DNA of 64,000 nt. Source: Deltaproteobacteria bacterium. GTDB lineage: Bacteria; Myxococcota; Kuafuiibacteriia; Kuafuiibacteriales; Kuafuiibacteriaceae. The notes beneath the pieces are model-generated. The model was not told the DNA's origin, searched no databases, and saw nothing but the letters and a program-made list of their open reading frames with translations. The translations under genes were made by a program, and so were the position numbers. Shown piece after piece: positions 10,877 through 41,081 of this stretch (the first letter of the stretch is position 1; the number at the start of each line of letters is the position of its first letter). The stretch covers positions 12,865-76,864 of the forward strand of contig WYAZ01000107.1 of the NCBI GenBank assembly GCA_011526105.1, written 5' to 3'.

Positions 10877-11379
10877 GCGGACTAGACCGTCTCAACCACC
10901 TGTCGCCGAGCGAGGCGCAAGCCGCCTTGCGACAGTGCTGTGGTTCGGAGGCGTGGGCGCGGCTCATGGGTGATGCGCGCCCTTTTGCCTCCTTCGGGGC
11001 GCTCACCGCCGCCGCGGACCGAAGCTTCGATGCGCTAACGCCCGAGGACTGGATGGAGGCCTTTGCGTCGCACCCTCGGCTCGGTGAGAAGAAGAACGTG
11101 CATCAAAGCGACACTGCGAACGCGTGGTCTGCTTCGGAGCAGAGCAGAGTGGAGGATGCCGAGGTCGATACGAAGCGGACGCTCGCCGAGCTGAACGAGC
11201 GGTACTTCCAGAAGTACGGCTTCACGTTCATTCTGTGTGCCAGCGGGCGCTCAGCGGCCGAGATGGTCGACTCGGTTCGGTCGCGACTCGGAAACTCGAA
11301 GGAAGAAGAACGGCGCATCGCCGCCGGAGAGCAGCGCAAGATTACGCGCTTGCGACTAGAGAGGCTGGTTTTGGCATGA
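10873..11379 (+). CDS. uraD: 2-oxo-4-hydroxy-4-carboxy-5-ureidoimidazoline (OHCU) decarboxylase
   Basis: 168 aa. LRQCCGSEAWARLM... and AFASHPRLGE motifs. 4-nt overlaps with alc and uraH. Confidence 0.85.
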   Translation: MSGLDRLNHLSPSEAQAALRQCCGSEAWARLMGDARPFASFGALTAAADRSFDALTPEDWMEAFASHPRLGEKKNVHQSDTANAWSASEQSRVEDAEVDTKRTLAELNERYFQKYGFTFILCASGRSAAEMVDSVRSRLGNSKEEERRIAAGEQRKITRLRLERLVLA

Positions 11380-11711
11380 CGGTATCCACTCACATTCTCG
11401 ACACCGCAAAGGGCCGACCCGCGGCCGGCGTGAAGGTCGTCATCGAGCGCAAGGAGCTGAGCGGCTTCACGCCCATCGCCTCCGCGGTCACGGATGACGA
11501 TGGGCGCGTGAAGCAACTACTTTCTGCGAACCAGAGCACGGCCGGTGAATATCGGGCCACCTTCGATGTGGGGGCGTATTTTGCGAACCACGGCGATAAG
11601 TCGTTCTATCCCGAGGTGCACGTCATCTTCACGATCGAGGCGCCCGCGGAGCACTACCACGTGCCTCTGCTTCTGAGCCCTTTCGGCTACTCCACGTACC
11701 GGGGGTCTTGA
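11376..11711 (+). CDS. uraH: 5-hydroxyisourate hydrolase (transthyretin-like)
   Basis: 111 aa from an internal ATG of the 195-aa ORF. STHILDTAKGRPAAGV... and the diagnostic C-terminal HVPLLLSPFGYSTYRGS. Confidence 0.9.
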   Translation: MTVSTHILDTAKGRPAAGVKVVIERKELSGFTPIASAVTDDDGRVKQLLSANQSTAGEYRATFDVGAYFANHGDKSFYPEVHVIFTIEAPAEHYHVPLLLSPFGYSTYRGS

Positions 11712-11715
11712 GCTC

Positions 11716-13257: not shown

Positions 13258-14687
13258 GCTTTCTTGCGCCGGTTCTCGACGATCGTCGGAAAGGAGCGGC
13301 TCTGCAGCTCCTCCATGGTCAGCCCGGTGGCGAGTGCCTCGGATTCGAGGAGTGCGCCGCAGGATATTCCGCGCAGGAAGTAATTGAGTAGACCCTGGCC
13401 GGTCGCGGCGTCGTCGAAGACATCCCCCACCAAGGTCGCTTGGGCCGCCACCTTGATGAAGTTCTGAAGACGCATCGAGGTCGCGGGCAGGTCGCGGAGA
13501 AAGAAGTCGAAGACCGCGGCGTATCGAGTGGCGAGCTGCCCGGGATGCAGATCCCAGCCCTGGTAGTAGCCGTTTCGCAGCGAATGCTGGATGTGGCGCA
13601 CGTGCAGGCGCCACGCGTCGTGGACCACGCGAAGGTTCTCGGCCTGTTCTTGCGCGCTGAGCTGCTCTCCCCTGTGAGGAGGCACGGGCATGATATTGGT
13701 CGCGCCGTCCGAGATGGGGATGCCGGTGCTCCCGAAGGTCGTGGTCATGACGTGTTTGGCGTGATCACACGCCATGTGCGCCATGTCTTGATAGCTCGCG
13801 GTCACGCCGCAGCCGGCGGTGTAGTCGTAGGTTCCAAAGTGCGCGCCGGCGAGGCGACCTTCACCTGCGTCGATCCACTGAGGCATCATGCTGCGGCCGT
13901 CGAAGTCGAGGATGGACTGCGTGGTCTCGACCATGACCTCGAAACGCAACGTCTTGGGCGGTAGCCCGAGTCCTCGCTCGAGCTCCGAGAGCACGGAGAC
14001 GAGGATCCGCACCTGCTCGACGTGTGTGATCTTGGGTAAGGTGACGAAGAAGCCGTCCCATCGACCGCCGCTTTTCGCATAGGTGGTCGCGAACAGGTCG
14101 AGGGTGCGCAGGCTTCGCTGCCACAGGCCTTGGGTCAGCGGCTTGATGCGAATGCCACAGAACGGCGATGAGACGCCGGAGGTCACGGCTTCTGCGAGGG
14201 CTTTGGCCGCTCGCTCGGCGTGATGATCCTCTTCCGTGTCGGGGCGGCTCCCAAAACCGTCCTCGAAGTCGATGCGGAAGTCCTCCACCGCCTCTCGAGC
14301 GAGCTTGGCCCGAACGCGCTCGAACACGCGGTGGGCGCGCCAAGCCGCCGGGTGTGCAGCTTCGATGGCCTCGTTCGAGGACTCCAAGCTCTTGGTGAGC
14401 GACTCGATCTTCGATCGGGTCGTGGGCAGCGTCTCCGCGCCCTCGAGATCGATGGCGCGAGCGAAGGTACAGAAGTCGGAACCGTAGCGTTCGAGATGAG
14501 CGAGGGCGAGCTCGCCCAGCTTCTTGATGGTGTTGGCCTCGAAAAGCTGCGCTCCGCCGTACACCGTGTGCACCGGCTGCCGCGCTCCGGACTCACCGCG
14601 GTAGCGTAGCGCGAGGGCCTCGTGCACCGGTGAGAGGCGAGCTTGGAGTGTGGTCAGGTACGAATCGCTGAGATGAGTTCTGGGCAT
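13254..14687 (-). CDS. uncharacterised CitE / HpcH / malate-synthase-like TIM-barrel protein
   Basis: 477 aa. Three family-type motifs in the right order: FRIDFEDGFG (DxED), FEVMVETTQSIL (hhhE[TS]) and GAHFGTYDYTAGCG (G..D[LY]....G). ATGA stop/start overlap with puuD. Confidence 0.55.
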   Translation of the reverse strand: MPRTHLSDSYLTTLQARLSPVHEALALRYRGESGARQPVHTVYGGAQLFEANTIKKLGELALAHLERYGSDFCTFARAIDLEGAETLPTTRSKIESLTKSLESSNEAIEAAHPAAWRAHRVFERVRAKLAREAVEDFRIDFEDGFGSRPDTEEDHHAERAAKALAEAVTSGVSSPFCGIRIKPLTQGLWQRSLRTLDLFATTYAKSGGRWDGFFVTLPKITHVEQVRILVSVLSELERGLGLPPKTLRFEVMVETTQSILDFDGRSMMPQWIDAGEGRLAGAHFGTYDYTAGCGVTASYQDMAHMACDHAKHVMTTTFGSTGIPISDGATNIMPVPPHRGEQLSAQEQAENLRVVHDAWRLHVRHIQHSLRNGYYQGWDLHPGQLATRYAAVFDFFLRDLPATSMRLQNFIKVAAQATLVGDVFDDAATGQGLLNYFLRGISCGALLESEALATGLTMEELQSRSFPTIVENRRKKA

Positions 14688-23441: not shown

Positions 23442-25112
23442 ATGTTGCGCGGGGTTTTCTGCCTGATATCGATGACGTGTGTGCTCGCCTGTGCGGAGGA
23501 CCCCTGCCGACAGGACGCGCCCAGCGTACAGATCGAGGTCGTCGCCGACGAGGTGTCTCGGGCGACCTCCATCCGAGAGATCGATGTGCGCCTTCGGTAT
23601 CAGGACCGTACCGTGGCCAAGAACTTTCAGCTCGACGACGAGCTCTTCGATGGCCGGGCCTCGCTCGAGGTCGTGCTCGATCCTCCACCCAGCGGCAGTT
23701 TCATGCTCGAAGTGGAGGTCGAGGCTCGGGCCGCCGGTTTAAGGCTCGTCGAGACTACGCAGGCCGAAGCCACAGCGGATGGCTGTAATCGAATCTCGAT
23801 CGACCTCACCGACAGTGTTCCTCCTCCCCCCGGAGATGCAGGGGTCGATGCGGGCGGGCCCGACGTGGGTCGGCCGCCCGGCGACGCCGGGGCGGATGCC
23901 GGATTGGACGCCGGTCTTCCCGATCTCGGTCAACCCGAGATCTGCGGAGACGGCGTCGTCACAAACCTCGAGGCTTGCGACGACGGCAACGAGCTGGACA
24001 GAGATGGATGCTCAGGCTGCGCGGTCGATGATGGCTTTGGATGCAGCGGCTCACCCAGCCGTTGTGAGATCTGGTGGAACCCGGACTACGCCCATCGTCG
24101 ACGGGTCGCGGTCGCGGTCGGGCCGAAGTCCCCCTTCAACGGCTATCAGTCCTACACGCTCCGGGTGCAAGGCCTCGACACCGCTCGTCTCATCGAGGCG
24201 GGCGAGCTCGGAGGCAACTGCGCCGATCTCCGGGTGGTGCTTGCCGATCAGGCCCAGGACGCAGCGGCTGCGCTTCCGCGGAACATCGTGCGCTGCGGGT
24301 CGACCGACACGGAGGTCCACTTCATGTCGCCAGTGGATCTCCCGGCCAATACGCTCGTCGATCGCTTCTTCATCTACTTCGGAGGCCCGAACGCTCCGGT
24401 CGAAGAGCAGCCGAGCAGCCGCAACGTCTACTTGTTCTACGATGACGCCACGAGTGACCGCCGAGGCCGCTACGTCCACGGTCGCATCGACGACTGGTAC
24501 GACGCCTGGGACGACTCTCTGTCTTGGAACTCGAACGGCTACTACAACTACAGCTCCCCGAACGACACCGTGAGTGGTTATCGACGGGTGATGGAGGAAC
24601 GCGACGTGTACGCGGAGGCTGAGTTCTATCACACCGGCTGTGCCCCGCAGAACATGGTCACCGGCATCATCCTTCGCGGCATCATCGCCGGCGGCAGCAC
24701 CATCACCGAGACCGCGGATCACTACTACTTTTCGGGTCGGCTCGATCAGGCCGGCTGCGGCGAAGGCTACGTCGAGGACGGAGACATCTCCCGTGGGCAC
24801 TGGCGGAGCACCATCGTCGATGGCGACAAGCCCCCGCAGATCACCTCCAACGTCTGGCGCAAGCACGCTCTTGCCGCGGTGGGCGAGGATCTTACGACCC
24901 TAACCTCTTGGGACTCGGACACCGCTTGGTCCAGTCCCGGTTTCCCCGATCGGGCCCCCCTTGTCCGTGGCACCGATCCCGCCGCCGCGAGCTCACCGGG
25001 TTTTGCTGCGTTCATCACCACGCAGGACACTGGTCGGATCCGTCGCTTCCTGGTGAGGCGCTTCACGGATCCGGAACCCCTGGTGAACCTCGGGCCGCAG
25101 GAGAGCCTCTAG
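23442..25112 (+). CDS. lipoprotein with myxococcus cysteine-rich repeat and DUF2341/LamG-like region
   Basis: Lipobox CVLAC. D/A/G linker. ICGDGVVTNLEACDDGNELDRDGCSGC. WWNPDYAHRRRVAV resembles the DUF2341 start. Confidence 0.6.
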   Translation: MLRGVFCLISMTCVLACAEDPCRQDAPSVQIEVVADEVSRATSIREIDVRLRYQDRTVAKNFQLDDELFDGRASLEVVLDPPPSGSFMLEVEVEARAAGLRLVETTQAEATADGCNRISIDLTDSVPPPPGDAGVDAGGPDVGRPPGDAGADAGLDAGLPDLGQPEICGDGVVTNLEACDDGNELDRDGCSGCAVDDGFGCSGSPSRCEIWWNPDYAHRRRVAVAVGPKSPFNGYQSYTLRVQGLDTARLIEAGELGGNCADLRVVLADQAQDAAAALPRNIVRCGSTDTEVHFMSPVDLPANTLVDRFFIYFGGPNAPVEEQPSSRNVYLFYDDATSDRRGRYVHGRIDDWYDAWDDSLSWNSNGYYNYSSPNDTVSGYRRVMEERDVYAEAEFYHTGCAPQNMVTGIILRGIIAGGSTITETADHYYFSGRLDQAGCGEGYVEDGDISRGHWRSTIVDGDKPPQITSNVWRKHALAAVGEDLTTLTSWDSDTAWSSPGFPDRAPLVRGTDPAAASSPGFAAFITTQDTGRIRRFLVRRFTDPEPLVNLGPQESL

Positions 25113-25162
25113 AGCGCCTCCTTCGGCTTGACCCTCGCCCGTCGGGGGCCGAAGACGGGTCC

Positions 25163-25912
25163 ATGGCTCCGATTGTTCGCATCGAGAACGTAGTGAAAGA
25201 GTACCCCCTCGGGAACCTCGTCGTCCGAGCACTCCAAGGGGTGGATCTCAGCATCGATCGCGGCGAGTTCACGACTATCGCGGGGCCTTCTGGCAGCGGA
25301 AAGACGACCCTACTCAACTTGATTGGCTGCGTGGACGTCCCGACCTCGGGGGTGGTGGAGATCGACGGGGATTCGACCTCGAAGCTTCACGACAAAGAGC
25401 TGACTCGGCTCCGTTTGCACAAGATCGGCTTCATCTTTCAGAGCTTCAATCTCGTCTCCGTTCTCGATCTGTTTCAGAACGTCGAGTTTCCGCTCCTGCT
25501 TCAGGGAGGGCTCACGAAGAAGGAGCGCGAGCTGCGGGTCCGCGACATGGTCGACAAGGTGGGCCTCACGCCTCAGCTGAGGCAGCGTCCGAACGAGCTC
25601 TCCGGTGGGCAAAGGCAGCGTGTGGCCATCGCTCGCGCTCTGGTCACGAAGCCCAAGTTGGTGCTCGCGGATGAACCCACCGCGAACCTGGACTCCGTCA
25701 CCGGCCTGGCCATCATCGAGCTCATGCGGGAGATGAACGCCAAGGAGTCCACCACATTCATATTCTCCACGCATGACCCCAAGGTCATGGAACACGCCTC
25801 TCGCATCGTTCACATCGTCGATGGCCGCATTCACAGCGATGAACGAACCGATTTCCTCTCGTCCCCGCTCGCTGAGACGGGTGGGCGCGCGGAAGCGCAG
25901 GCCGCGCCGTGA
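25163..25912 (+). CDS. ABC transporter ATP-binding protein (LolD/MacB type)
   Basis: Walker A GPSGSGKTT. Signature LSGGQRQRVAIARAL. Walker B LVLADEPT. Internal ATG of a longer ORF. Confidence 0.9.
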   Translation: MAPIVRIENVVKEYPLGNLVVRALQGVDLSIDRGEFTTIAGPSGSGKTTLLNLIGCVDVPTSGVVEIDGDSTSKLHDKELTRLRLHKIGFIFQSFNLVSVLDLFQNVEFPLLLQGGLTKKERELRVRDMVDKVGLTPQLRQRPNELSGGQRQRVAIARALVTKPKLVLADEPTANLDSVTGLAIIELMREMNAKESTTFIFSTHDPKVMEHASRIVHIVDGRIHSDERTDFLSSPLAETGGRAEAQAAP

Positions 25913-28029
25913 ACAGCCTCTCCTATTGGGCGGTGCTCTTTGTCGCCTCCGTCCGCAACATCTTCACACACAAGCTGAAGAGCGCGGTGGTGGGGCTGCT
26001 CATGTGTTTTGGGACCGGCTTGGTGGTGACCGGGACCGCGCTGCTCGACAGCATGGAAGACTCCATGTCCAAGAGCATCACCTCGAGCCTCGCCGGACAT
26101 CTGCAGGTCTACTCTGCCGAGGCCAAGGACGAGCTCGCGCTCTTTGGCGGGATGATGATGGGTCGCGAGGACATCGGGCGAATCGCCAACTTCGAAGATC
26201 TCGAGCGCGTGGCGGAGCAGGTCGAGAACGTGCGGGCCATCGTGCCGATGGGCATCGACATCGCCAGCATCACCGGCGGCAACGAAACCGACCGTGTCGC
26301 GGATACGCTGCGGACCGCAGTGGCGGCTCGAGATCAGGCCCAGATCGACCTCTTGCGTTTGCAGCTCAGCCTCATGGCGGACGCGCTGCGAAGTGAGTTC
26401 GAGGCCAAGCAGGCCATCACCGCCGACAAGGAGGCGCTGGCCGCCGACCTTCAGAACCTCGACCGACTCCAATCGGATGCCTTCTGGTTGAGTCTGTCGG
26501 ACGACCCGGAGCTGGCGATCCAGTTCATCGAGACCAAGATCGCCCCGATGTCCTCGGATGGCCTCATCGTCTATCTCCGCTACGTCGGGACCGACTTGGA
26601 CGAGTTTACGAAGAATTTCGAGCGATTCGAGATCGTCAAAGGCGAGGCGGTGCCGGCGGGCCACCGTGGCTTCCTGTTCGCCGAGAAGTTCTACGAGGAC
26701 CACGTGAAGCACAAGGTGGCCAGGGACCTAGATCGCATTCATCGTCAGGTGCACGAAGAAGAGAAGACGATCGCCGAGGATGCGCTGCTTCGGACCAAGG
26801 TCGGGCAGATGTCCCGTCAGTACCGCCGCATCTCCTTTCAGCTTCGCCCCGATGACGCCCAGAACTTGACCTCGGAGCTCCGGACCATGATGCCGGAAGT
26901 TCGTGCGAAGGATGGCGCTGAGCCGAGCCTCGAGGTGCTGCTGCAGGCTTTCCTCGAGGTGAACGATCAGAACCTCGATGAGCGCTACGCCTACTTCTAC
27001 GAATCGATCGCGCCCAAGATCGAGTTGTACAAGATCAAGGTCGGCGACGTGATGACCATTCGCGCCTATACCCGCAGCGGTTACCTGAAGGCCGTCAACA
27101 CCAAGGTCTACGGCACCTTCAACTTCCGTGGGCTCGAGCGCTCCGATCTCGCGGCCGCGGCCAACTTGATGGACATCGTCACCTTTCGAGATCTGTACGG
27201 CCTGATGAGCGAGACCCGGCGGGAGGAGCTCGAGCAGATCCGCGAGGAGGTCGGGGCGGCTGAGATCGATCGCCAGAACGCCGAGGACACCTTGTTTGGC
27301 GGAAGCGGCCAGTCACTGGTGGCGGCCCCCGAAGACACCGCCGGTTTTGATGAGTTCCGCGGCCAGGACCTCGCCGGGATCCGCGAGGACCTCGCGGAGG
27401 CCTACAACCAACGCTTCGACGCCGAAACCGTCGCGCGCGGGGTCGCTCTGAACGCGGCGGTGGTGCTCGAGGACCCAGACCGTCTCGATGAGACCAAGGC
27501 GGCGCTGCAGGCGGCCTTCGACCGCTCCGGCCAACCCATGAAGGTCGTGGACTGGCAGACCGCCTCGGGTATCGTCGGGCAGTTCATCATCGTGATTCGG
27601 CTCGTGCTCTACGTGGCCATCTTCATCATCTTCCTCGTCGCGCTCGTCATCATCAACAACACGATGGTCATGGCCACGATGGAACGCACCACCGAGATCG
27701 GCACCTTGAGGGCCATGGGCGCCCAGCGGAGCACGGTCATGACCATGTTTCTCTTCGAGACGGTGGTGCTGGGCCTGCTCGCCGGGGTCGCGGGTGCGCT
27801 CGGCGGCGCGCTCTTCGTGACTTGGCTCGGCCATGTCGGCATCCCGGCCGGAAACCAAGACACCCTCATCTTCCTCTTTGGTGGGCCGCGGATGTATCCG
27901 GCCTTTGGCCTCGCGAACCTCGCGGTGGGGCTCGTCTCCATCTTGGTGGTGAGCCTCGTTTCGACGCTCTATCCCGCCCGGCTCGCGACACGTATCCCGC
28001 CGGTGGTGGCCATGCAGGCGAAGGACTGA
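25909..28029 (+). CDS. ABC transporter permease, FtsX/MacB-type with very large periplasmic domain
   Basis: GTGA start/stop overlap with the ATPase gene. TM1 LKSAVVGLLMCFGTGLVVTG. About 500-aa extracytoplasmic region. C-terminal FtsX module EIGTLRAMGAQRS.... Confidence 0.85.
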   Translation: MNSLSYWAVLFVASVRNIFTHKLKSAVVGLLMCFGTGLVVTGTALLDSMEDSMSKSITSSLAGHLQVYSAEAKDELALFGGMMMGREDIGRIANFEDLERVAEQVENVRAIVPMGIDIASITGGNETDRVADTLRTAVAARDQAQIDLLRLQLSLMADALRSEFEAKQAITADKEALAADLQNLDRLQSDAFWLSLSDDPELAIQFIETKIAPMSSDGLIVYLRYVGTDLDEFTKNFERFEIVKGEAVPAGHRGFLFAEKFYEDHVKHKVARDLDRIHRQVHEEEKTIAEDALLRTKVGQMSRQYRRISFQLRPDDAQNLTSELRTMMPEVRAKDGAEPSLEVLLQAFLEVNDQNLDERYAYFYESIAPKIELYKIKVGDVMTIRAYTRSGYLKAVNTKVYGTFNFRGLERSDLAAAANLMDIVTFRDLYGLMSETRREELEQIREEVGAAEIDRQNAEDTLFGGSGQSLVAAPEDTAGFDEFRGQDLAGIREDLAEAYNQRFDAETVARGVALNAAVVLEDPDRLDETKAALQAAFDRSGQPMKVVDWQTASGIVGQFIIVIRLVLYVAIFIIFLVALVIINNTMVMATMERTTEIGTLRAMGAQRSTVMTMFLFETVVLGLLAGVAGALGGALFVTWLGHVGIPAGNQDTLIFLFGGPRMYPAFGLANLAVGLVSILVVSLVSTLYPARLATRIPPVVAMQAKD

Positions 28030-28032
28030 GGC

Positions 28033-29379
28033 ATGAACACCGTGTACTTCGAGATCGCCGCTCGCAACTTGCTCCAGTCGAAGCGCCGCACGTTCCTTCT
28101 CGGCCTGGCCTTGGCGCTGGTGACCATGCTCTTGGTCATGCTCCTCGCGCTCTCGCAGGGGCTCACCGAGACCATGATCCGGTCGGCGACCACGCTCTCG
28201 GCCGGGCATATCAACGTCGCCGGCTTCTACAAGGCGAACGCCAACGACGCGGCACCGATGGTCACGAACGTGGATGCGATCCGGAAGATCGTCGAGGAGA
28301 ACACTCCAGGGCTCGACTACGTCGTCGATAGGCATCGTGGTTGGGCCCGGGTCGTGAGCGAGAGTTCCTCCACGCAAGCCGGGTTGACCGGCATCGACAT
28401 TCGCTCGGAGCCGCGTTTTGGGCAGACCATCCAGCTGGCGCTGGAGAGTGACTACAAGGAGGGCGGACGGGCCGAGGTCGTCGGCCGCCTCGAGGATCTC
28501 GAGCAGCCGGACAGCGTGCTGATCTTTGCCGCCCAGGCCAAGCGCCTCGAGGTCGGCGTGGGCGACGCGCTCACGGTGATCATCGAGACCCTCAATGGTG
28601 CGCGCAACACCACCGACGTCACGGTCGTCGCGGTCGCCAAAGACCTCGGCATGATGAGCAACTGGAGCATGTTTCTCCCCAAGCAGACCATCCTCGATAT
28701 GTACCGCTTGAAGTCGGACACGACCGGCGCGGTGATGGTCTATCTGAAGGACATCGAAGAGTCCGAGAAGGTCATGGGGACGCTGCGTGAGGTGTTTGTC
28801 GATCGGGGCTACGTCCTCATGGACCACGACCCGCAGCCGTTCTGGATGAAGTTTGAGCGGGTCTCCGGCGAAGACTGGCTCGGTCAGAAGCTCGACCTCA
28901 CCATCTGGAGGGACGAGGTCTCCTTCCTCGAGTTCGTCTTCACCGCGGTGAACACGGTCTCGTTCTTCCTGCTGGGCATCCTGCTGGTCATCATCGTCGT
29001 CGGCATCATGAACAGCATGTACATGTCGGTGCGCGAGCGCACGCGCGAGGTCGGGACCATCCGTGCCATCGGCATGCCCAAGTATGGGGTGCTCGGCATG
29101 TTCATGCTCGAAGCGGTGGTACTCGGCATCGTCGCTACGACGGTGGGCGGGCTCATGGGCGCGGCCTTCTCGGCTGCGATTGACGCCTGGGCTCCGCCGG
29201 TGCCGGTCGAGGCGGTGCAGGCGATTCTGATGAGCGACCGGCTGCACCTCGCGGTCCGGCCGGGTCAGATCATCACCGCCATCGTCGCCTTTAGTCTCGT
29301 GACCATGCTGGCCTCACTGTGGCCGGCGCTCAAGGCGGCCAAGATGCAGCCGGTCGACGCCATCCACTCTGCTGGCTAG
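28033..29379 (+). CDS. ABC transporter permease, FtsX/MacB-type (second subunit)
   Basis: 448 aa. N-terminal TM, a periplasmic domain, then the FtsX module EVGTIRAIGMPKYGV...LKAAKMQPVDAI. Confidence 0.85.
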   Translation: MNTVYFEIAARNLLQSKRRTFLLGLALALVTMLLVMLLALSQGLTETMIRSATTLSAGHINVAGFYKANANDAAPMVTNVDAIRKIVEENTPGLDYVVDRHRGWARVVSESSSTQAGLTGIDIRSEPRFGQTIQLALESDYKEGGRAEVVGRLEDLEQPDSVLIFAAQAKRLEVGVGDALTVIIETLNGARNTTDVTVVAVAKDLGMMSNWSMFLPKQTILDMYRLKSDTTGAVMVYLKDIEESEKVMGTLREVFVDRGYVLMDHDPQPFWMKFERVSGEDWLGQKLDLTIWRDEVSFLEFVFTAVNTVSFFLLGILLVIIVVGIMNSMYMSVRERTREVGTIRAIGMPKYGVLGMFMLEAVVLGIVATTVGGLMGAAFSAAIDAWAPPVPVEAVQAILMSDRLHLAVRPGQIITAIVAFSLVTMLASLWPALKAAKMQPVDAIHSAG

Positions 29380-29388
29380 GAGGAACCC

Positions 29389-30168
29389 ATGAAGTCTCTT
29401 GCCCCTCTCTTTGTCGTTCTTCTTTCAGCGGCGTTTGCGCCGCGCGCGGCCCATGCGCTCGGACAGAGCGAGGTCGACGCCATCGTCAAGGAGCTGGACG
29501 AACGTCAGCGGAACAACGGTGACTACAAGTCGCTCGTCTACATCGAGCAGAAGGAGAAGAACAAGAACGACCTCATCTATCAAGCGGTGGTGTATCGGCG
29601 CGATGAAGACGACAAGCTCATGATCCTGTTCATGCAGCCCAAGGCGGAGGCGGGCAAAGGTTACCTCCGCATCGACAAGAACCTCTTCATGTACGATCCC
29701 ACGGTGGGCCGGTGGGAGCGACGGACCGAGCGCGAGCGAATTGGTGGCACGGACTCGAGGCGGGCGGATTTCGATGAGTCGCGTATGGCCGAGGAGTTTG
29801 ACGCGCGGTTTGTGGCGACCGAGAAGCTCGGGGCGTTTGATGTGGCGCACCTGAAGCTCTCTGCGAAGAAGGGCGTGGATGTCGCTTATCCGGTGCTCGA
29901 GCTCTGGGTCGACACGAAGACCGGGAACTTGCTGAAGCAGCAGGAGATCGCTCTGTCGGGTCGATTGATGCGCACCTCCTATTATCCGAAGTGGGAGAAG
30001 ATGCACTCGCCCTCCAAGGGCAGCGACGTCTACTTCCCGAAAGAGATACGCATCTTCGACGAGGTCGAGAAGGGCAACCAGACGCTCATTGTGATGCAGA
30101 AGGTCGACCTCTCCTCGCTCGAGGCCAACATGTTCACGAAGGCCTGGCTCGAGAGTAAGAGCCGATGA
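29389..30168 (+). CDS. LolA-like outer-membrane lipoprotein-sorting protein
   Basis: Signal peptide LFVVLLSAAFAPRAAHA. LolA_like-type sequence (YIEQKEKNKNDLIYQAVVYRRDEDDKLMILFMQPKAEAGKGYLRIDKNLFMYDP). Confidence 0.7.
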   Translation: MKSLAPLFVVLLSAAFAPRAAHALGQSEVDAIVKELDERQRNNGDYKSLVYIEQKEKNKNDLIYQAVVYRRDEDDKLMILFMQPKAEAGKGYLRIDKNLFMYDPTVGRWERRTERERIGGTDSRRADFDESRMAEEFDARFVATEKLGAFDVAHLKLSAKKGVDVAYPVLELWVDTKTGNLLKQQEIALSGRLMRTSYYPKWEKMHSPSKGSDVYFPKEIRIFDEVEKGNQTLIVMQKVDLSSLEANMFTKAWLESKSR

Positions 30169-31727
30169 GAGCGCTCATGCTCGGCAGCTTGCTGAGCCTG
30201 TTCGGGGGCGCCGCCTTCGCGCAGTCCGAAAGCGACCGCGAGGCCGCGATCTTTGGTGAGGTGCCGAGCGTAGGCACGTCCAGCACCGCGACCGTCGCTG
30301 AGTCCCAGCGCCTCGAAGACGCGCTCTTTGGATCTGAAACGGTCACTCCGAGCGCTGAGGGCACCTCGTCTCCAGACGGCGACTTTGGCTGGGTCCAGGA
30401 GAAGCTCGGCGCCGCGCACGACTACCTCGAGCTCGGAGGGTTCTTGTGGCTGCGCGGGCAGTACAGCTTCGTCGACGGTGAGAATCCGGAGACCTATGCG
30501 CTTCAGAGCCCCAACTTCGCAGACCTCTACCTCGACGCGCGCCCGAACGATCGCGTGCGCGCCTATTTTCGAGGTCGGCTTCGGTACGATCCTTCGATCG
30601 CGGAGGGCAGCCCGGGCTTCTTGGGCACGACGCTCGAGGAGACACGAGTGCAGCTCGACCAGCTCTGGCTCAAGTTCGACATCGCTCGCACCGTTTTTGT
30701 CACGCTGGGCAAAGAACGCATCAAGTGGGGGGTCGGCCGCTTCTGGATCCCCACCGACTTCTTGAACCAGCAGGTGCTCGATCCGCTCAACGGAGTTGTG
30801 CTCTTCGACGAGCGGCTGGGCGTCAACATGCTCAAGCTTCACGTGCCGGTGGAGTCGCTCGGGTGGAACTTCTACGCGATCGCGACGACGGACGATGCGT
30901 TCTCGCCGGAGCGGGTGGGCGGCGCCTTCAAGGCCGAGTTTCTCGTGGGTCAGACCGAGCTCGCTCTGGCCGCCAACGTTCGCAAGGACGCACCGGTGCG
31001 GCTGGGGGCCACGGTGTCCACTGGGGTCTGGCTCTTTGACCTTCGGGCCGAGGCCTCGATCGAGCACGGCAACAAGCAGGCCTTCGTGCGTGGTCAGTGT
31101 CGTCCCAACGCGTTCATCGACGGCGTGAACCGAGGCACCATCGATGTGCTCGGCCGGCCCTTGGAGCTCGACAGCTACCCCGAGTTCTTCGGAGAGGCGT
31201 ACTCCCGCGAAGACGAGTGGATTCCTCGAGCGGTGTTCGGGGCCGAGTTCGGACTGGGCGTATTCGACGACGATACGCTCTATTTGGGGGCCGAGTACTT
31301 CTACAACGGAGCGGGCTACGGAGGCTCCGACCTCTACTACTGCTTGGCGACGCGCGGCGCCTTCACGCCGTTCTTTCTCGGCGAGCACTACGCCGCGCTC
31401 TATGCGCTGCTTCCGGCGCCGGGGCGCTGGGACGACTCCACCTTTGTGCTCTCTTCCATCGCCAACCTCTCGGATCTATCGTCGGTCCTTCGCTTCGACT
31501 TCACGCAGCTTCTGTTTCGATACTTGAGCCTCAACGCCTTTCTGCAGGTGCACTTCGGCGAGGCGGGGGACGAGTTCAGCTTCGCGGCGGAGACCATCCC
31601 GCTGGAGCTGCCTGCGGGTTTGCCGGAGTCGGTGACGAACGACCCCACGGTTCAGCTGCTTGCGGCCGGTCTCAGGGTGGACAAGCCGATCTTCGAGGTC
31701 GGCTTTGGGTTGCGCTTGAACTATTGA
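30165..31727 (+). CDS. putative outer-membrane beta-barrel protein
   Basis: ATGA overlap with the LolA-like gene. Signal peptide [12 protein letters not shown]. Alternating-hydrophobicity strands. C-terminal beta-signal-like [11 protein letters not shown]. Confidence 0.6.
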
Positions 31728-32951: not shown

Positions 32952-34097
32952 TTGAAATCCTGGCCTCGCGGTGGTCTGCTGGCCCCAAGGCCAAACGTGT
33001 CGTCCTTTCTCCGTTGCCGCTCTGCGCGCTTGCTCACCGCTGTCATCCTCTCCTGCCCCATGGCCTGCGGGGACGACGAGCCCGTGCGACCGGACGCCGG
33101 GCCCGCCTGTACCGCCAACGCAACCGAGTGCGCCGCTCGTGGGGCGAACTGTGGACGCGTGGACCTCCCAGACGGGACCTGCATCGTCTGCGGCACTTGC
33201 TCCAACGGGACCGAGACCTGTGGCGGCTCCGGGCAGGCCAACGTCTGCGGGTGCACGCCGCGAAACTGCGTCGAGCTGGGATTTGAGTGCGGCATGCAAG
33301 ACAGCATGTGCGGAGGCATGATCGATTGCGGCGTCTGTCTCGGCGGCGCGGACTGCATCGCCGGTAAATGTTCGAAGATCCTCGCGCTCGAAGAGCGTTG
33401 TGAGCGGACGCCCGAAGCCTGTGACGTCGGCCTCAAGTGCTGCGAGGTCGGCGGGACCGAGAGCGTATGCCTCACCGCGGACCCCAGCGGCAACTGCCCT
33501 CCGCCCAAGGCCGACATCGTGCTCGACCGCAACGCGACCGCCACCACCCTCAGCTTCGAGACGCTGAGCTTCCAACCAACCTCGTGCGCCATCTCCGATG
33601 GCTGCATCCCCGGGCCGGGGACGTATCAGCTCCTTCGTTTCGCGACCCAGATCAACAACGTCGGGCGAGCGGCGCTGTCGGCCGGCACGCCGGCGAGAGA
33701 TCCAGACTTCGTCTACGACATGTGCCACATGCACTATCACTTCGATGGCTATATGACCTTTTCACTGCGCGCGCAGGAGACCGACGGGAGCCCAGGGGCG
33801 GTGGTCGCGGGCGGAGGCAAGTACGCCTACTGCATCGAGGACGTCAGTCGCGTGGCCCCGCTGCTTCCGGGCTCTCCGGAGAACGCGTTCTATCAATGCG
33901 GAGACGGAAGTCGGCCGCAGGGTCTGTCGGTGGGCTGGGGCGACTTGTATGAGGCGGCGCTCGATTGTCAGTGGGTGGACATCACGGGGGTGGCGCCTGG
34001 AGCCTACGTGCTCGAGCTCGTGGCCAACCCCGACCGAAAACTCGACGAGAGCCGCTTCGAGAACAACACGCTCTTGGTGCCGGTGGTCATTCGCTGA
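32952..34097 (+). CDS. lysyl oxidase (LOX) family protein with Cys-rich N-terminal region
   Basis: The C-terminal half aligns by eye with the animal LOX catalytic domain. CHMHYHFDGY corresponds to CHQHYH (Cu site). GGGKYAYCIEDV corresponds to HKASFCLEDT. QGLSVGWGDLYEAALDCQWVDITGVAPGAYVLELVANP...ESRFENN corresponds to [38 protein letters not shown]...ESDYTNN. TTG start; lipoprotein-like LLTAVILSCPMAC. Confidence 0.85.
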   Translation: MKSWPRGGLLAPRPNVSSFLRCRSARLLTAVILSCPMACGDDEPVRPDAGPACTANATECAARGANCGRVDLPDGTCIVCGTCSNGTETCGGSGQANVCGCTPRNCVELGFECGMQDSMCGGMIDCGVCLGGADCIAGKCSKILALEERCERTPEACDVGLKCCEVGGTESVCLTADPSGNCPPPKADIVLDRNATATTLSFETLSFQPTSCAISDGCIPGPGTYQLLRFATQINNVGRAALSAGTPARDPDFVYDMCHMHYHFDGYMTFSLRAQETDGSPGAVVAGGGKYAYCIEDVSRVAPLLPGSPENAFYQCGDGSRPQGLSVGWGDLYEAALDCQWVDITGVAPGAYVLELVANPDRKLDESRFENNTLLVPVVIR

Positions 34098-35302: not shown

Positions 35303-35317
35303 TGGCACGCCAGTTGA
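35303..35317 (+). promoter_or_regulatory. candidate sigma54 (-24/-12) promoter
   Basis: cTGGCACGccagTTGAa against consensus TGGCACG-N4-TTGC(A/T). Spacing is correct and the only core mismatch is C->A at -12. It lies 61 nt upstream of the ATG at 35378, which has a strong AAGGAG RBS. Confidence 0.45.
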
Positions 35318-35377
35318 AATAGGTCTCTTCGTCCCGCGCAACCACAAAGCGGGCGCTCAAACGAAGGAGATACTCAA

Positions 35378-36667
35378 ATGGTCGCTGCAATCGTTCACAA
35401 CCCTCTCATTCACGCTCGCCCCGCAAACAACAGTGTTGGCACTCAGGTCAACGACATCCTCGGCAAGTACGGCCTGCCCGGCGGCTTGCTCGGCGCACAG
35501 ATCGACGCGCTCATGGGCAATCAGCTCGGCGCGCTCAACAACCTCAAGGACGCTTTCCAAGAGGCGGCCCTCGGTCGCGGCACCACTGGTCTCGAGCGCA
35601 TGCTCGGTCGACCGCTCCCTCCCTCTGGTTTTGTGCCGAGCCCTGCGCAGCAGTTGGCCAATCACCTCGCGCCGAACGGCTACGCGACGGTGCGGCACCA
35701 GATGGATCTCGCCCCCGGCCACAGCGACTCGCCGCTCGCTCGCTTGTTCGACCCGGCTCGACGCAACGCCGCGCAGTTCGAGGCCGCGCTCAACAAGAGC
35801 CCGTTCCTGAAGGCCGCCTTCGAGCGGGCCATCGGCGGCAAGGTGATCGCGGATGATCGGACCGACGGAAAGCTCACCATCGAGCGCAAGATTCCTCGGC
35901 CCCGCATGCCGGCCCTCCCTGGTCTGCAGCTCGGTCAGACCGCCGCTGGTTTGCTCGGTGCCATGGACCACGCGATTCAATCGCAGCTCGGCGGTATCGC
36001 CGGCGCGGGTCAGGCCGCTGGTTCCTTTGGACTCGGCGCGCTGCAGTCGCTGCTCGGCGGTCTCGGCGGCGGGCTGAACAGCCTCCCCGGTGTGGGTGGC
36101 GGTTCATGGAACCCGAACGCTCGGCCTGGGCTCATCAACAACAACGGACGCGCGGAGGAGAACAAGCATCAGGCCGAGATCGACTCGCTGATGAAGGATC
36201 CATCCCTCTCGGTCGAGGATAAGATCACGCTGATGCTCATGCTCATCATGAAGAAGATGGACAAGGACATCGAAGCGCAAGGTCAGCACATCAACCAGGT
36301 TCAGCAGCAGCAGAACAAGCAGGGCGCGAACGGCCAGGCGGCCGGCGCCTCGAACGGCGGCGGGGGAATCCTCGGCTCCATCGGTGGCTTGCTCGGTGGT
36401 GCCGCGGGCACCGCGCTCGGCGGCCCGATCGGCGGGATGCTCGGCGGTCAGCTCGGTGGCGCGCTCGGCGGTGCGGCCAATAACGCGGCTGGTGGAGCGG
36501 CGGGCGGCGCCCAGGGCGGCGAGAGCAGCTCGCCCTCCATCGACATCGAGACCACGAAGCTGAAGCGCATGATGGATAAGCGCTCGCAGATGTTCGACAT
36601 GCTCCGGCAGATCATCGACAAGTACAACGAGACCGCCAAGGGCATGATTCAGAGCATCGGCCGATAA
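35378..36667 (+). CDS. Cys-free, glycine-zipper-rich harpin-like protein (hypothetical, probably secreted)
   Basis: 429 aa with an AAGGAG RBS. No Cys and no Sec signal. Two (GGxx)n tracts: LLGGLGGGLNSLPGVGGG and GGLLGGAAGTALGGPIGGMLGGQLGGALGG. Two amphipathic helices: SVEDKITLMLMLIMKKMDKDIEAQ and TKLKRMMDKRSQMFDMLRQIIDKYNETAKGMIQSIGR. Confidence 0.75.
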   Translation: MVAAIVHNPLIHARPANNSVGTQVNDILGKYGLPGGLLGAQIDALMGNQLGALNNLKDAFQEAALGRGTTGLERMLGRPLPPSGFVPSPAQQLANHLAPNGYATVRHQMDLAPGHSDSPLARLFDPARRNAAQFEAALNKSPFLKAAFERAIGGKVIADDRTDGKLTIERKIPRPRMPALPGLQLGQTAAGLLGAMDHAIQSQLGGIAGAGQAAGSFGLGALQSLLGGLGGGLNSLPGVGGGSWNPNARPGLINNNGRAEENKHQAEIDSLMKDPSLSVEDKITLMLMLIMKKMDKDIEAQGQHINQVQQQQNKQGANGQAAGASNGGGGILGSIGGLLGGAAGTALGGPIGGMLGGQLGGALGGAANNAAGGAAGGAQGGESSSPSIDIETTKLKRMMDKRSQMFDMLRQIIDKYNETAKGMIQSIGR

Positions 36668-36701
36668 GTTCGGAGGCTCGAGAAGTTTCGGAAGGGGAGG
36701 G

Positions 36702-36742
36702 GGCCCCGGTCATCGAGAGGTGACCGGGGCCTTCGCTTTCTT
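36702..36742 (+). terminator. rho-independent-type terminator
   Basis: Perfect 11-bp stem GGCCCCGGTCA / TGACCGGGGCC with an 8-nt loop, followed by TTCGCTTTCTT. It starts 35 nt after the stop codon. Confidence 0.6.
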
Positions 36743-36770
36743 GGGGCATGTATGGAGGAGCGGGAGTTGA

Positions 36771-36912
36771 ATCGGAGGCGGAGAGACGTCGCAGGCCCCG
36801 GTGGCACCGCTCTCGGGGAACGGCCTTTTGCCTCCGCCTTTCGCCCTCCTGGCTCGGCGGGTCCCCTCTCGCGGTGCCGCCGGGGCCCGCGACGTCGCGT
36901 GCGGCTCTGCGT
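36771..36912 (+). repeat. long-hairpin repeat, copy A
   Basis: Outer stem GACGTCGCAGGCCCCGGTGGCACCGC / GCGGTGCCGCCGGGGCCCGCGACGTC (36785-36896). Inner helix GGGGAACGGCC / GGCGGGTCCCC. Pyrimidine-rich apical loop. Near-identical to copy B. Confidence 0.9.
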
Positions 36913-36996
36913 GTCACTGACCGACCGACGTTTGGGGTGACTCGATTGAGTTCGGCGGTCTCCACGCGGAAGCGTGAGACCAGAACGCTTTCCTGT

Positions 36997-37530
36997 TCAG
37001 TTCGGAAACAGACGCAGGATGCGGTCGCGGTTGTCTGAGAGCACCTCTTGGAACACTTCAGGCACGTTCGCACGTTCGAAAGCTCGAGCGACGGTTTCTC
37101 GCGGCAGCCGTTCGTGGGTGATCAGGTGGCGGATATCTGCGAGATCACCATCATCCGCGCGGCATGCCTTGCTCAGGATCATGTCCAGCGGGCCCAGCAC
37201 TTCGAGCTGAAGGCGATCGAGCACGAGAGCGAGACGTCGGCACGAGGAACGCCACTCAGGGGTGAGGATCTGTTGTTCGGGGCCCCAGATGTGGCTGAGG
37301 TACAGACCCTCGGGTGCGAGCTCTGCGTTGGTACGTTCTAGGGCGGCGCCCAGGTTCGCCTCCTCGATCAAGGCTTCGATCTCTCGATCGTCTGCCAGTA
37401 GGTCTACATCTTCGGTGGCCCGTGAGAGGCCGTAGCCGAGGATCATCGCGGCTCCCCCCATGAGTCGGATGCGCGCGGGCCCCTCGAGGTGACGATCGAG
37501 CGTCCGGATGATCTTCTCGGCCGCGCTCAT
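36997..37530 (-). CDS. small Pol-beta-fold nucleotidyltransferase (AbiEii / DUF6036-like)
   Basis: 177 aa from an internal ATG of a longer ORF. NTase signature LMGGAAMILGYGLSRATEDVDLL (GG-x14-DVD). Downstream LDMILSKACRADDGDLADI. ATGA overlap with the upstream gene. Confidence 0.6.
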   Translation of the reverse strand: MSAAEKIIRTLDRHLEGPARIRLMGGAAMILGYGLSRATEDVDLLADDREIEALIEEANLGAALERTNAELAPEGLYLSHIWGPEQQILTPEWRSSCRRLALVLDRLQLEVLGPLDMILSKACRADDGDLADIRHLITHERLPRETVARAFERANVPEVFQEVLSDNRDRILRLFPN

Positions 37531-38027
37531 CCGACGCGCGCTTTCACTCGCAGTAGCCTCTTTGGATCGTAACGCACCGTCGGTCGTCGGGTGTCGCGCA
37601 CGGGGTGCGCGTCGACCACCATCTGAATCGCCTGAACGGCCTCGTTCTGCTCCTGTTCGGGAATGAGGCCAAGGACCCACGCGAGCACCGAGTCTGCCTT
37701 CTCTCTGCGCGCGCCCAGCCAAAGCCGGGCGGGATCGAGACGACCCGATTGAAGCATTCGAACGATGAGTTTCACGACCCGAACCTCGGCCGGCGCCTGG
37801 GGCTGGAGGAGACCGACGACGATATCCTCGAGCGAGAGCGCAGGGTCCAACTCGCCGAGGTCGGAGCGATCCGAGTAGGCCCCGCGAAAGCCGCGCAGAT
37901 TCGCTTGGTCGATGAGGTACTCCTGTGGGCCCATGCTTCCGGCTCGTCGTGCAAGCGCGTCTCGGAAGAAGGAGCGGTGGCACGGCACGCCAAGTTTCTC
38001 TGCGTAGGTGGGCTCCACGAGGCTCAT
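37527..38027 (-). CDS. hypothetical protein, putative partner/antitoxin of the nucleotidyltransferase
   Basis: 166 aa from MSLVEPTYAEKLG. High GC3. Translationally coupled to the NTase gene. No family motif recognised. Confidence 0.5.
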   Translation of the reverse strand: MSLVEPTYAEKLGVPCHRSFFRDALARRAGSMGPQEYLIDQANLRGFRGAYSDRSDLGELDPALSLEDIVVGLLQPQAPAEVRVVKLIVRMLQSGRLDPARLWLGARREKADSVLAWVLGLIPEQEQNEAVQAIQMVVDAHPVRDTRRPTVRYDPKRLLRVKARVG

Positions 38028-38127: not shown

Positions 38128-38271
38128 ATCGGAGGGCGGAGAGACGTCGCTGGGCCCCGGTGGCACCGCTCTCGGGGAACGTCCTTTTGCCTCCGCCTTT
38201 CGCCCTCCTGGCTCGGCGGGTCCCCTCTCGCGGTGCCACCGGGGCCCGCGACGTCGCGTGCGGCTCTGCGT
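38128..38271 (+). repeat. long-hairpin repeat, copy B
   Basis: Same element as copy A with a few substitutions and a 1-nt bulge in the outer stem (hairpin 38143-38255). Confidence 0.9.
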
Positions 38272-38288
38272 CTCGGTTGACGTGTCGA

Positions 38289-40198: not shown

Positions 40199-40340
40199 GC
40201 GAGCCCGCAGTGCAAAGCGACGGGACCCGGGACGACCGCACGCCTCGAGGGGACTCGCCGAGCCAGGATGGCGAGAGGCGGAGGCCGGAGGCCGTTCCCC
40301 GAGAGGGGTGCGGTCGTCCCGGGTTCCGTCGCGTTCGTCC
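40199..40340 (-). repeat. long-hairpin repeat, copy C (inverted orientation, diverged)
   Basis: Core GAGGGGACtCGCCGAGCCAGGAtGGCGAgAGGCGGAGGC...GGCCGTTCCCCGAGAG matches the reverse complement of A/B. The outer stem has a different sequence but is still self-complementary: GCGACGGGACCCGGGACGACCGCAC / GTGCGGTCGTCCCGGGTTCCGTCGC (40217-40332). Confidence 0.8.
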
Positions 40341-40445: not shown

Positions 40446-41081
40446 ATGCGCCCCATGCGACGAATTCTCCCCCTCCTCCTCACGCTCCCTCTCATGTTCG
40501 CAGTTGCCTGTGGCGACAGTGAAGGCGACGCCGATACCGGCGTCACCACCGACCTCGGTACGGCCTCCGACAGCGGCGTCCGTCCCGACGCAAACGTTCA
40601 GGCCGACACCGGCGTTCGTAATGACGCGGGCACGCCCGCCGACTCGGGCACGCCGTCGGACTCTGGCACGCCGACCGACTCTGGCACGCCCACTGACTCG
40701 GGCACACCCGCCGACTCGGGCACGCCGACCGACGCGGGCAACATCCCGGACGCGGGCACCAGCACCTCCGGTGCGTGCACGAACACCGCCGACGAGACCG
40801 CGATCGACACCACCGGCGAAGCGGCGCTCACCACGGCGACGCGAGACTGCATCGTGGGCTGCATCCTCGATCCGAACCGCGTGGATTGCACCGCTCAATG
40901 CATGACCGACAGCACGGGCATCTCGCTGCCTTGCACCACGTGCTTCGCAGATCGAGCGAACTGTGCGGTGGTGAACTGCTCGGCAGCTGGATGTCTCACC
41001 GATCCGAGCAGTCAGGGCTGCGCAGACTGTCAGATCCAGAACAACTGCGTGAGCAACTTCGAGACCTGCTCGGGTCTCTGA
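40446..41081 (+). CDS. lipoprotein with D(S/A)GTPx hexapeptide repeats and Cys-rich C-terminal domain
   Basis: MRPMRRILPLLLTLPLMFAVAC (lipobox). Tandem DSGTP(S/T/A) units. C-terminal domain with 12+ Cys (CIVGCILDPNRVDCTAQC...CADCQIQNNC). Confidence 0.75.
   Translation: MRPMRRILPLLLTLPLMFAVACGDSEGDADTGVTTDLGTASDSGVRPDANVQADTGVRNDAGTPADSGTPSDSGTPTDSGTPTDSGTPADSGTPTDAGNIPDAGTSTSGACTNTADETAIDTTGEAALTTATRDCIVGCILDPNRVDCTAQCMTDSTGISLPCTTCFADRANCAVVNCSAAGCLTDPSSQGCADCQIQNNCVSNFETCSGL
40623..40766 (+). repeat. 8 x 18-bp in-frame tandem repeat (6 tight + 2 degenerate)
   Basis: GAC(T/G)C(G/T)GGCAC(G/A)CC(N)(N)(N)(N) units encoding DAGTPA DSGTPS DSGTPT DSGTPT DSGTPA DSGTPT DAGNIP DAGTST. Confidence 0.9.

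Follow-up and report, generated by a model that had tools for sequence, protein, structure and literature searches.

This report concerns one gene in a 64,000-nucleotide stretch of contig WYAZ01000107.1, from a bacterium classed among the Deltaproteobacteria; we refer to the whole of this stretch as the window. The gene encodes a protein of 429 residues, a member of a large unnamed protein family for which we use the label FAM. FAM is tied to the non-flagellar type III secretion system (T3SS) of its lineage. Our analysis leans, without great assurance, towards the window protein being a T3SS-exported, translocator- or harpin-like membrane-active protein of this new family, in which the linker between two conserved helices has grown into a glycine zipper. 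The features of the locus are as follows.

35303-35317, forward strand: sigma54-type promoter-like element TGGCAC-N5-TTGA (-24/-12 class), found in the sequence; predicted transcription start at about 35329
35363-35369, forward strand: Shine-Dalgarno sequence GAAGGAG, 8 nt 5' of the ATG, read from the sequence
35378-36667, forward strand: coding sequence, 429 residues; dispersed paralogue of an unnamed T3SS-associated Myxococcota protein family
35429-35902, forward strand: N-terminal globular domain (residues ~18-175), conserved in full-length members (alignments A1 and A2; AlphaFold2)
35969-36121, forward strand: first uncharged Gly-rich tract (residues 198-248), equivalent to the Met/Gly/Pro-rich low-complexity region of the relatives; predicted to be disordered
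36197-36322, forward strand: C-terminal module, conserved helix 1 (residues 274-315, DPSLSVEDKITLMLMLIMKKMDKDIEAQ...QQQQ), from alignment columns and AlphaFold2
36320-36520, forward strand: linker grown into a glycine zipper (residues 315-381), 67 uncharged residues; subclade-specific
36530-36664, forward strand: conserved amphipathic C-terminal helix 2 (residues 385-429, SPSIDIETTKLKRMMDKRSQMFDMLRQIIDKYNETAKGMIQSIGR), the most conserved part of the family
36699-36744, forward strand: intrinsic-terminator-like hairpin with a T-rich tail; 16-bp stem (36699-36734) with 11 G-C pairs

The open reading frame starts with ATG, and the GC content at its third codon positions is 0.82 in a window of 65% GC. 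An earlier note on this DNA had described a protein free of cysteine with a single tryptophan, which is what we find (no Cys, Trp at position 244), and both peptides that it quoted are present verbatim. Glycine accounts for 72 residues (16.8%). The two Gly-rich tracts are free of charge, and the second contains seven consecutive GxxxG units (residues 336-364) with GGP at their centre; the two glycine tracts of the earlier note are real in this protein, but a glycine zipper is not a trait of the family. Also in agreement with that note, the N-terminus has no hydrophobic core resembling that of a signal peptide. In many homologues the conserved domain starts no more than about five residues from Met1, which leaves no space for a cleaved signal.

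We built two AlphaFold2 models, one from a 24-sequence alignment and one from a deeper alignment of 81 sequences. The latter has a mean predicted local distance difference test score (pLDDT) of 66.8. The N-terminal domain is predicted with high confidence (pLDDT of 90-96 at residues 20-75 and 105-175), as is, fairly confidently, a helix spanning residues 258-315 (pLDDT of 75-90 in helix 1). The C-terminal helix is predicted with moderate confidence, and the Gly-rich tracts are disordered.

The window gene is real and transcribed. Bioreactor, activated-sludge and sludge metagenomes contain near-identical DNA in no fewer than 20 runs, and assembled metatranscriptome contigs contain it in about 20 runs. 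In two metatranscriptomes, the RNA contigs start at 35340 and 35343 and end at 36680 and 36697. These ends match the terminator and the predicted sigma54 start, which lies a few bases 5' of them, and thus fit a single-gene transcript. Word depth is 7-11 over the gene and 0-3.5 over the neighbouring genes, contig depth being a crude measure that may include DNA carry-over. Of 27 family genes, six are preceded by a motif of the sigma54-like class at -60 to -108, the background rate being 0.019 per 250 nt. These six are without exception dispersed paralogues, and the enrichment suggests that in them the motif probably works as a promoter. The promoter of its own and the clean terminator that had been claimed for this gene are therefore both supported. 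Together with the single-gene mRNA, they indicate that the window copy is regulated apart from the secretion operon. Effector and harpin genes are usually regulated separately from the secretion operon.

A strain variant of the gene differs by 12 synonymous and nine non-synonymous codon changes and an in-frame 3-nt insertion, the non-synonymous changes falling mostly within the Gly-rich linker. That the variant keeps the reading frame with these changes is the pattern of a coding sequence under constraint. In the RNA contig of run X26, a strain variant has its in-frame 3-nt insertion, together with clustered substitutions, inside the glycine-zipper tract (window positions 36346-36351), showing that linker length differs even among close strains.

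Family architecture and the secretion operon

The protein had been called an orphan, a description that does not survive database searches. A word-indexed search returned more than 165 homologues, and a full HMMER search (E ≤ 1e-3) of 1.84 billion cluster representatives returned 426 homologue clusters at 50% identity. The earlier note had proposed checking how the homologues are distributed. All named matches are entries called 'hypothetical protein', and their source genomes are of uncultured Myxococcota, Myxococcales or 'Deltaproteobacteria'. When 185,579 species-representative genomes were scanned with a pattern, 37 loci came to light, with up to six per genome and all in metagenome-assembled genomes (MAGs). 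Most of these MAGs are from Myxococcota or 'Deltaproteobacteria', and five loci sit on short contigs binned to other phyla. FAM was not seen in cultured Myxococcia and was found in MAGs only, in a scan that would miss diverged copies. The family is confined to an uncultured Myxococcota lineage often met in activated sludge and bioreactors, and literature searches turned up no account of the family.

Alignments A1 and A2 divide FAM into three parts: a conserved N-terminal domain, a variable Gly/Met/Pro-rich region and a strongly conserved C-terminal module of two helices. The consensus of helix 1 is DPSLTVEDKVTLMxMLIMKKMDxDIERQAQYINSIQQQQ, with invariant or near-invariant columns at Asp274, Glu280, Asp281, Met288, Lys293, Asp295, Ile298 and Gln301 (numbering of the window protein). 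The consensus of helix 2 is SPSIDVETMKLKRMIDKRSQMFDMLRQIIDKYNxTAKGIIQSIGR, and its invariant columns are Ser387, Asp389, Glu391, Lys394, Lys401, Arg402, Met405, Phe406, Leu409, Ile412, Tyr416, Asn417, Thr419, Ala420, Lys421, Ile424 and Arg429. The linker between the helices varies greatly in length and composition and is short and polar in most relatives. It is in this linker that the glycine zipper sits, as a trait of one subclade and not of FAM. In a neighbour-joining tree, the window copy and loci L001 and L043 form a dispersed subclade adjoining the clade of T3SS-embedded copies. The number of cysteines among family members ranges from none to six. Apparent needle-sized relatives of about 100 residues, consisting of the hairpin only, were not relied on; the one that we inspected (104 residues) is an artefact of a run of Ns in the assembly.

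Helix 2 also occurs in proteins with unrelated N-termini, and several of the N-terminal regions fused to the module are hallmarks of T3SS-secreted proteins. HrpF and NopX are translocon proteins of the T3SS. In two relatives the module follows a NolX domain and a HrpF/HrpK1 translocator domain (84 bits at a cutoff of 26 and 58 bits at a cutoff of 31, respectively, in P0176; 91 and 60 bits in L024, whose genome also holds a T3SS locus), and in a third it is fused to NolX (P0205, 29.6 bits). The module stands in these fusions where NopX/HrpF has its hydrophobic C-terminal domain, with no sequence similarity between the two. Two further relatives (P0138 and P0143) carry DUF1521, at 34-39 bits (cutoff 23.6), and another (P0073) combines the module with RTX repeats. 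DUF1521 is the domain through which NopE1, a T3SS effector of rhizobia, cleaves itself when induced by metal. In Pfam searches the window protein itself has neither the NolX (PF05819) nor the HrpF/HrpK1 (PF16937) domain; bona fide NolX/HrpF repeats precede the module in some relatives and not here, and what these relatives share with the window protein is the C-terminal module only.

One copy of FAM per genome occupies a conserved slot in a T3SS operon, in at least 12 genomes; the remaining copies, that of the window among them, are dispersed. The order of the slot is sctU, orf151, a tetratricopeptide repeat (TPR) gene, FAM, a second TPR gene and sctV, where orf151 encodes 151 residues, the upstream TPR protein has about 168 residues and the downstream one about 258 (TPR258). 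The fuller order is (fliK-like)-sctQ-fliO-like-sctR-sctS-sctT-sctU-orf151-TPR-FAM-TPR-sctV. The slot was first seen at three loci, and tblastn searches with the locus proteins against all fetched loci extended it to ten or more MAGs. It is also present in the MAG of the closest homologue of the window protein (51% identity), where the pattern scan had missed the embedded copy. Even in loci interrupted by unrelated genes, FAM has remained beside the downstream TPR gene and sctV. In at least 17 more cases, a FAM protein and a TPR258 orthologue come with longest contigs of equal size, several of just 6-14 kb, which suggests that each pair lies on the same contig.

The SctV protein scores 848 bits on the SctV model TIGR01399 (cutoff 692) and 686 bits on the FlhA model (cutoff 772), from which we conclude that the locus is non-flagellar; SctR lies above the SctR cutoffs. 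FAM is thus linked to a non-flagellar T3SS. We also observed that the locus (L060/L061 of MAG JADJPE01; L002) retains a flagellar gene order, namely fliK-like, fliM/N-like sctQ, fliO-like, fliP, fliQ, fliR, flhB ... flhA, and that a ruler domain of the FliK type is encoded there (Flg_hook, 34 bits; cutoff 29.8). Walking upstream in search of sctN, sctJ, sctC and sctF, we found that the locus begins at the fliK-like gene and that the genes before it are unrelated, so that any ATPase, ring, secretin and needle genes would lie elsewhere. A separate observation concerns orf151 (L002 8576-9031 and orthologues), between sctU and the first TPR gene: its C-terminal helix, …AMLxLLERYNxLAExVYxRLL, faintly echoes helix 2 of FAM. 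All eight of the eight orthologues beat their reversed controls, by just 0.6-5.5 bits, and we record this as a hint only.

Judged by sequence, the two flanking TPR proteins are homologues of class II (translocator-type) chaperones of the LcrH/SycD/IpgC group. For both, the best match is TIGR02552, the SycD/LcrH family of T3SS chaperones (E = 3e-25 and 3e-26), with scores of 88-92 bits that fall just below the cutoff of 104.8 bits. Compared directly, the two proteins score 30 and 40 bits against Yersinia LcrH and 21 bits against Shigella IpgC, with no match to YscY (1.5-2.6 bits), YscG, SycN, LcrG or FlgN. Many of the orthologues are annotated as LcrH/SycD chaperones by the Joint Genome Institute. 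Class II chaperones of injectisomes hold the pore-forming translocators, and their genes normally flank the translocator genes, which are preceded by the chaperone gene in the orders lcrH-yopB-yopD and ipgC-ipaB-ipaC. TPR258 (L002 11359-12135 and orthologues, directly 5' of sctV) is 82-96% identical across MAGs, and the adjoining FAM proteins 55-67%. Its conservation matches that of SctV (87-91%), suggesting a role in the core machine.

This last feature suits an alternative that we consider very unlikely, in which FAM serves the export gate as a cofactor, either in the cytoplasm or as an early substrate, much as YscX does with YscY at SctV: the module would bind the highly conserved TPR protein encoded beside sctV, and docking of this pair on SctV would govern which substrates are chosen. 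The order FAM-TPR-sctV mirrors yscX-yscY-sctV on pCD1, the high identity of TPR258 relative to FAM is as expected of a core machine part, and the TPR protein has a weak match to the SctY model (E ~1e-6). Against this, FAM shows no similarity to YscX, the TPR proteins match LcrH and IpgC far better than YscY, and six or more dispersed paralogues in a genome, together with fusions to translocator and effector domains, suit cargo better than a single regulator.

Comparison with known proteins

We searched known secretion proteins with a profile made from 149 C-terminal-module sequences, using hmmsearch with reversed-sequence controls. The targets were five SctF proteins, SctI, FlgB, FlgC, FlgE, FlgF, FlgG, FlgK, FlgL, YscX, YscP, YopN and NopX/HrpF, as well as IpaB, IpaC, IpaD, YopB, YopD, LcrV and others. 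The five SctF proteins, MxiH and YscF among them, scored between -1.1 and 0.8 bits, no better than reversed sequences; IpaC reached 6 bits and YopB 2.7 bits. By eye, the C-terminus of FAM resembles those of flagellar rod and hook proteins, of SctF and especially of IpaC (...LLNIIDSINQS...IAGNIRA). None of these likenesses is significant by hmmsearch with reversed controls and hhalign, and we rejected them as homology; for six IpaC/SipC sequences, hhalign gave a probability of 0.7% and an E-value of 0.04 in a single comparison, which is not significant. A match to SseC, seen in one of 81 members at 20 bits (cutoff 30.2), was not taken as evidence.

Several results weigh against export through the T3SS and action on membranes, both of which are argued for FAM from guilt by association throughout. 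Pfam, NCBIfam and PDB sequence searches gave no significant match for the protein, its two helices, short relatives or the family profile. The module profile rose above its controls for none of the target proteins listed above, bar a full-length alignment of IpaC type at 6-8 bits. A Foldseek search, a check that the earlier note had proposed, returned nothing from the PDB below E = 3.5 for either AlphaFold2 model, and hence no match to a known fold. The glycine zipper is only moderately hydrophobic, with a maximum Kyte-Doolittle mean of 1.31 over 19 residues. No T3SS core gene lies within the 64-kb window, no chaperone or T3SS gene lies within 30 kb of the window copy, and no chaperone gene adjoins it. 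In the T3SS locus of the relatives, no ATPase, ring, secretin or needle gene was seen. The PxLxxP motif for binding class II chaperones occurs in one embedded orthologue; it is not conserved, and we dropped it from consideration. Lastly, Myxo-type systems may not secrete to the outside at all, according to Abby & Rocha (PMC3459982).

The injectisome translocators are among the closest known parallels. Like YopB/YopD with LcrH, IpaB/IpaC with IpgC, and SseC, embedded FAM directly follows an LcrH/SycD-like gene within a T3SS operon. The sizes are similar (about 400 residues for FAM, 363 for IpaC and 306 for YopD), and both groups lack a Sec signal and have long helices, with a conserved amphipathic helix at the C-terminus. 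The window paralogue has an uncharged segment between its helices, whereas the embedded orthologues have a short polar linker. Unlike the translocators, FAM has neither significant sequence similarity to them nor classical hydrophobic transmembrane helices, and it differs further in its many dispersed paralogues and in the second LcrH-like gene between FAM and sctV.

Two other resemblances, to the helices of harpins and to the C-terminus of needle subunits, had been drawn by eye in the earlier note, and neither has held up: in the absence of any profile or fold match, the harpin likeness is compositional only and the needle likeness is unsupported. Harpins (HrpN, HrpZ, PopA, Hpa1) share with the window protein a Gly-rich, Cys-poor, largely disordered sequence without signal peptide and an association with T3SS, and their genes, like the window copy, often lie outside the core operon with a promoter of their own. 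In contrast to harpins, the window protein has a confidently predicted globular N-terminal domain, a strongly conserved C-terminal module and a non-plant ecology, and it shows no homology to them. That it should be a true homologue of plant-pathogen harpins (HrpN, HrpZ, Hpa1) eliciting plant responses was already disfavoured and is, in our view, extremely improbable. The Gly-rich, Met-containing composition would fit, as would the lack of cysteine in the window copy and of a signal peptide, but no harpin model was among the Pfam and NCBIfam matches of the protein or of 81 relatives at any threshold, other family members contain up to six cysteines, and the hosts are Myxococcota of wastewater and bioreactors, not plant pathogens.

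The likeness to needles can be put in a more general form, namely that FAM is a polymerising axial subunit (needle, filament or sheath) of the myxobacterial T3SS, its C-terminal hairpin building a tube and its N-terminal domains decorating the outside. SctF and the flagellar axial proteins have a helix-loop-helix structure and a conserved C-terminal helix ending hydrophobic-polar-Arg, as does FAM, whose two long conserved helices show heptad-like spacing and end in ...IIQSIGR. Variable N-terminal domains on a constant C-terminal module would also suit a decorated tube. The faint similarity of the orf151 helix is a further point in its favour, and the FliK-like ruler gene implies that something is measured, which keeps the idea alive. 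Nevertheless we give it only a slim chance. The module profile is at noise level against the five SctF proteins, SctI and seven flagellar axial proteins, and the protein, its two helices and its short relatives had no Pfam match at E ≤ 10, including T3SS_needle_F (PF09392) and Flg_bbr_C. An SctF protein is a hairpin of 70-90 residues served by chaperones of the YscE/YscG type, whereas the window protein is about five times longer, the family has long disordered tracts in about 400 residues, and the flanking chaperones of the orthologues are of the class II, translocator type.

A further alternative dispenses with the T3SS. The window protein would be a glycine-zipper membrane protein, either a stress or envelope protein similar to SlyB or C19orf12 or a bacteriocin-like toxin; its C-terminal helices would merely oligomerise, and the embedded copy would be a coincidental neighbour of the secretion genes. 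SlyB (Gly-zipper 2TM) and C19orf12-like proteins indeed have a period-4 GGxx repeat in some 30-40 uncharged residues with a central Pro/Gly break, as in the window protein. The PDB and family-profile sequence searches returned, apart from coiled-coil noise (influenza HA2, E ~0.05), a weak match to the SlyB glycine zipper (E = 0.045), which is the best PDB match. C19orf12-like matches appeared in eight of 81 relatives, at 25-28 bits below a 30-bit cutoff, and the window protein itself has no Pfam glycine-zipper match. The dispersed position of the window copy, its own promoter and the absence of secretion genes nearby also speak for a role outside secretion. We nonetheless regard this alternative as unlikely. 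The zipper is an insert specific to one subclade, the rest of the protein is unrelated to SlyB or C19orf12-like proteins, and no such model reaches its cutoff. No fewer than 12 genomes preserve the synteny with sctU, sctV and two LcrH-like genes, which survives the insertion of unrelated DNA, and there are the fusions to HrpF/NolX and DUF1521. To reach the envelope, a protein that lacks both Sec signal and lipobox would still need a dedicated exporter.

Neighbouring genes and repeats

The neighbours of the window gene encode a lysyl-oxidase-domain protein, a PBP-like protein, a DUF6036 nucleotidyltransferase and an esterase, with ordinary metabolic and transport genes farther off. The lysyl-oxidase-domain protein (32952-34097, forward strand; E = 2e-28) has a Cys-rich N-terminal half and lies about 1.3 kb upstream, beyond the divergent PBP-like gene; it recurs on short metagenome contigs bearing the gene.

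Downstream, the repeat-bracketed stretch of the earlier note is in part as described. Direct repeats of 122 nt are present at 36794-36915 and 38153-38274, but a third, inverted copy at 40233-40311 makes this an interspersed intergenic repeat and not a simple bracket. With an internal palindrome and three intergenic copies within 3.5 kb, the repeat looks like a repetitive extragenic palindrome or a miniature inverted-repeat transposable element and not like the ends of one island. The open reading frame between the first two copies (36997-37983, reverse strand) contains a DUF6036/AbiEii-like nucleotidyltransferase domain (E = 6e-12) and may be a toxin-antitoxin or abortive-infection-type module; its long N-terminal extension is probably not translated.

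Elsewhere in the window, a urate/allantoin catabolism cluster (8514-14687) encodes an amidohydrolase, allantoicase, OHCU decarboxylase, a fusion of the urate oxidase N-terminal domain with cytochrome c, and a DUF6986 protein. A cluster resembling a lipoprotein or macrolide exporter (24908-31727) comprises an ABC ATPase, two FtsX/MacB-type permeases, a LolA-like protein and a domainless protein of 520 residues, and has the highest third-position GC content of the window. Two coding tandem repeats were noted: a 21-nt unit at 3669-3847, which produces an ERMDERF heptad repeat in a coiled-coil protein of 168 residues, and an 18-nt unit at 40567-40764 encoding a repeat of the D-S/A-G-T-P type.

Proposed role of the family

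In sequence, FAM shows no homology to the known families of translocators, harpins and needle subunits. Its genomic setting and domain make-up nevertheless suggest that it works like a T3SS translocator or harpin. The earlier note had proposed a secreted pore former or T3SS-type substrate. The operon slot, the chaperone genes and the fusions to HrpF/NolX and DUF1521 give strong circumstantial support to that proposal; secretion and pore formation are still inferred, and the window copy stands beside no secretion gene.

If the reading of FAM as T3SS-exported and membrane-active is correct, the protein would be made without a Sec signal and kept competent for export by the LcrH-like chaperone encoded in the cluster, and would leave the cell through the T3SS. 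Outside the cytoplasm it would act as a translocator- or harpin-like membrane-active protein, with the conserved two-helix module driving oligomerisation or docking and the disordered Gly/Met-rich regions contacting the target membrane. In the window paralogue, the uncharged zipper of 67 residues between the helices may likewise touch the membrane or become inserted in it. On this view, the window copy would be a separately regulated, sigma54-driven paralogue of the family.

Abby & Rocha place the T3SS of Myxococcales at the root of the non-flagellar systems and report no secretin, needle, tip or translocon for it, adding that tip and translocon homologues were possibly missed owing to fast evolution (PMC3459982). 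Reviews of Myxococcus predation describe a T3SS* that is needle-less and has no translocon homologues, and this 'needleless' T3SS* of Myxococcus xanthus is required for prey lysis (PMC10849154, PMC12075869). Against this background, FAM could supply the extracellular parts that the early-branching non-flagellar T3SS of myxobacteria is described as lacking. The family would form a new class of cargo, defined by the shared C-terminal helix-linker-helix and not by the N-terminus. The LcrH-like chaperones encoded beside SctV would read the module, and varied payloads (the novel globular domain, HrpF/NolX repeats, DUF1521 or the glycine zipper) would be passed to prey or to adjacent cells. We offer this broader proposal as a possible but doubtful one; if it is true, the lineage has kept a stage midway between flagellar export and translocation by injectisomes.

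FAM constitutes a new domain family for database curation, combining an N-terminal globular fold without a match in the PDB and a C-terminal two-helix module, and its hosts are recurrent members of activated-sludge and bioreactor communities. The operon slot between two genes for translocator-class chaperones and the relatives fused to HrpF/NolX provide concrete candidates for the secreted or membrane-active components of the myxobacterial T3SS. With these candidates, it becomes testable whether myxobacterial T3SSs export proteins at all, and whether they form pores.

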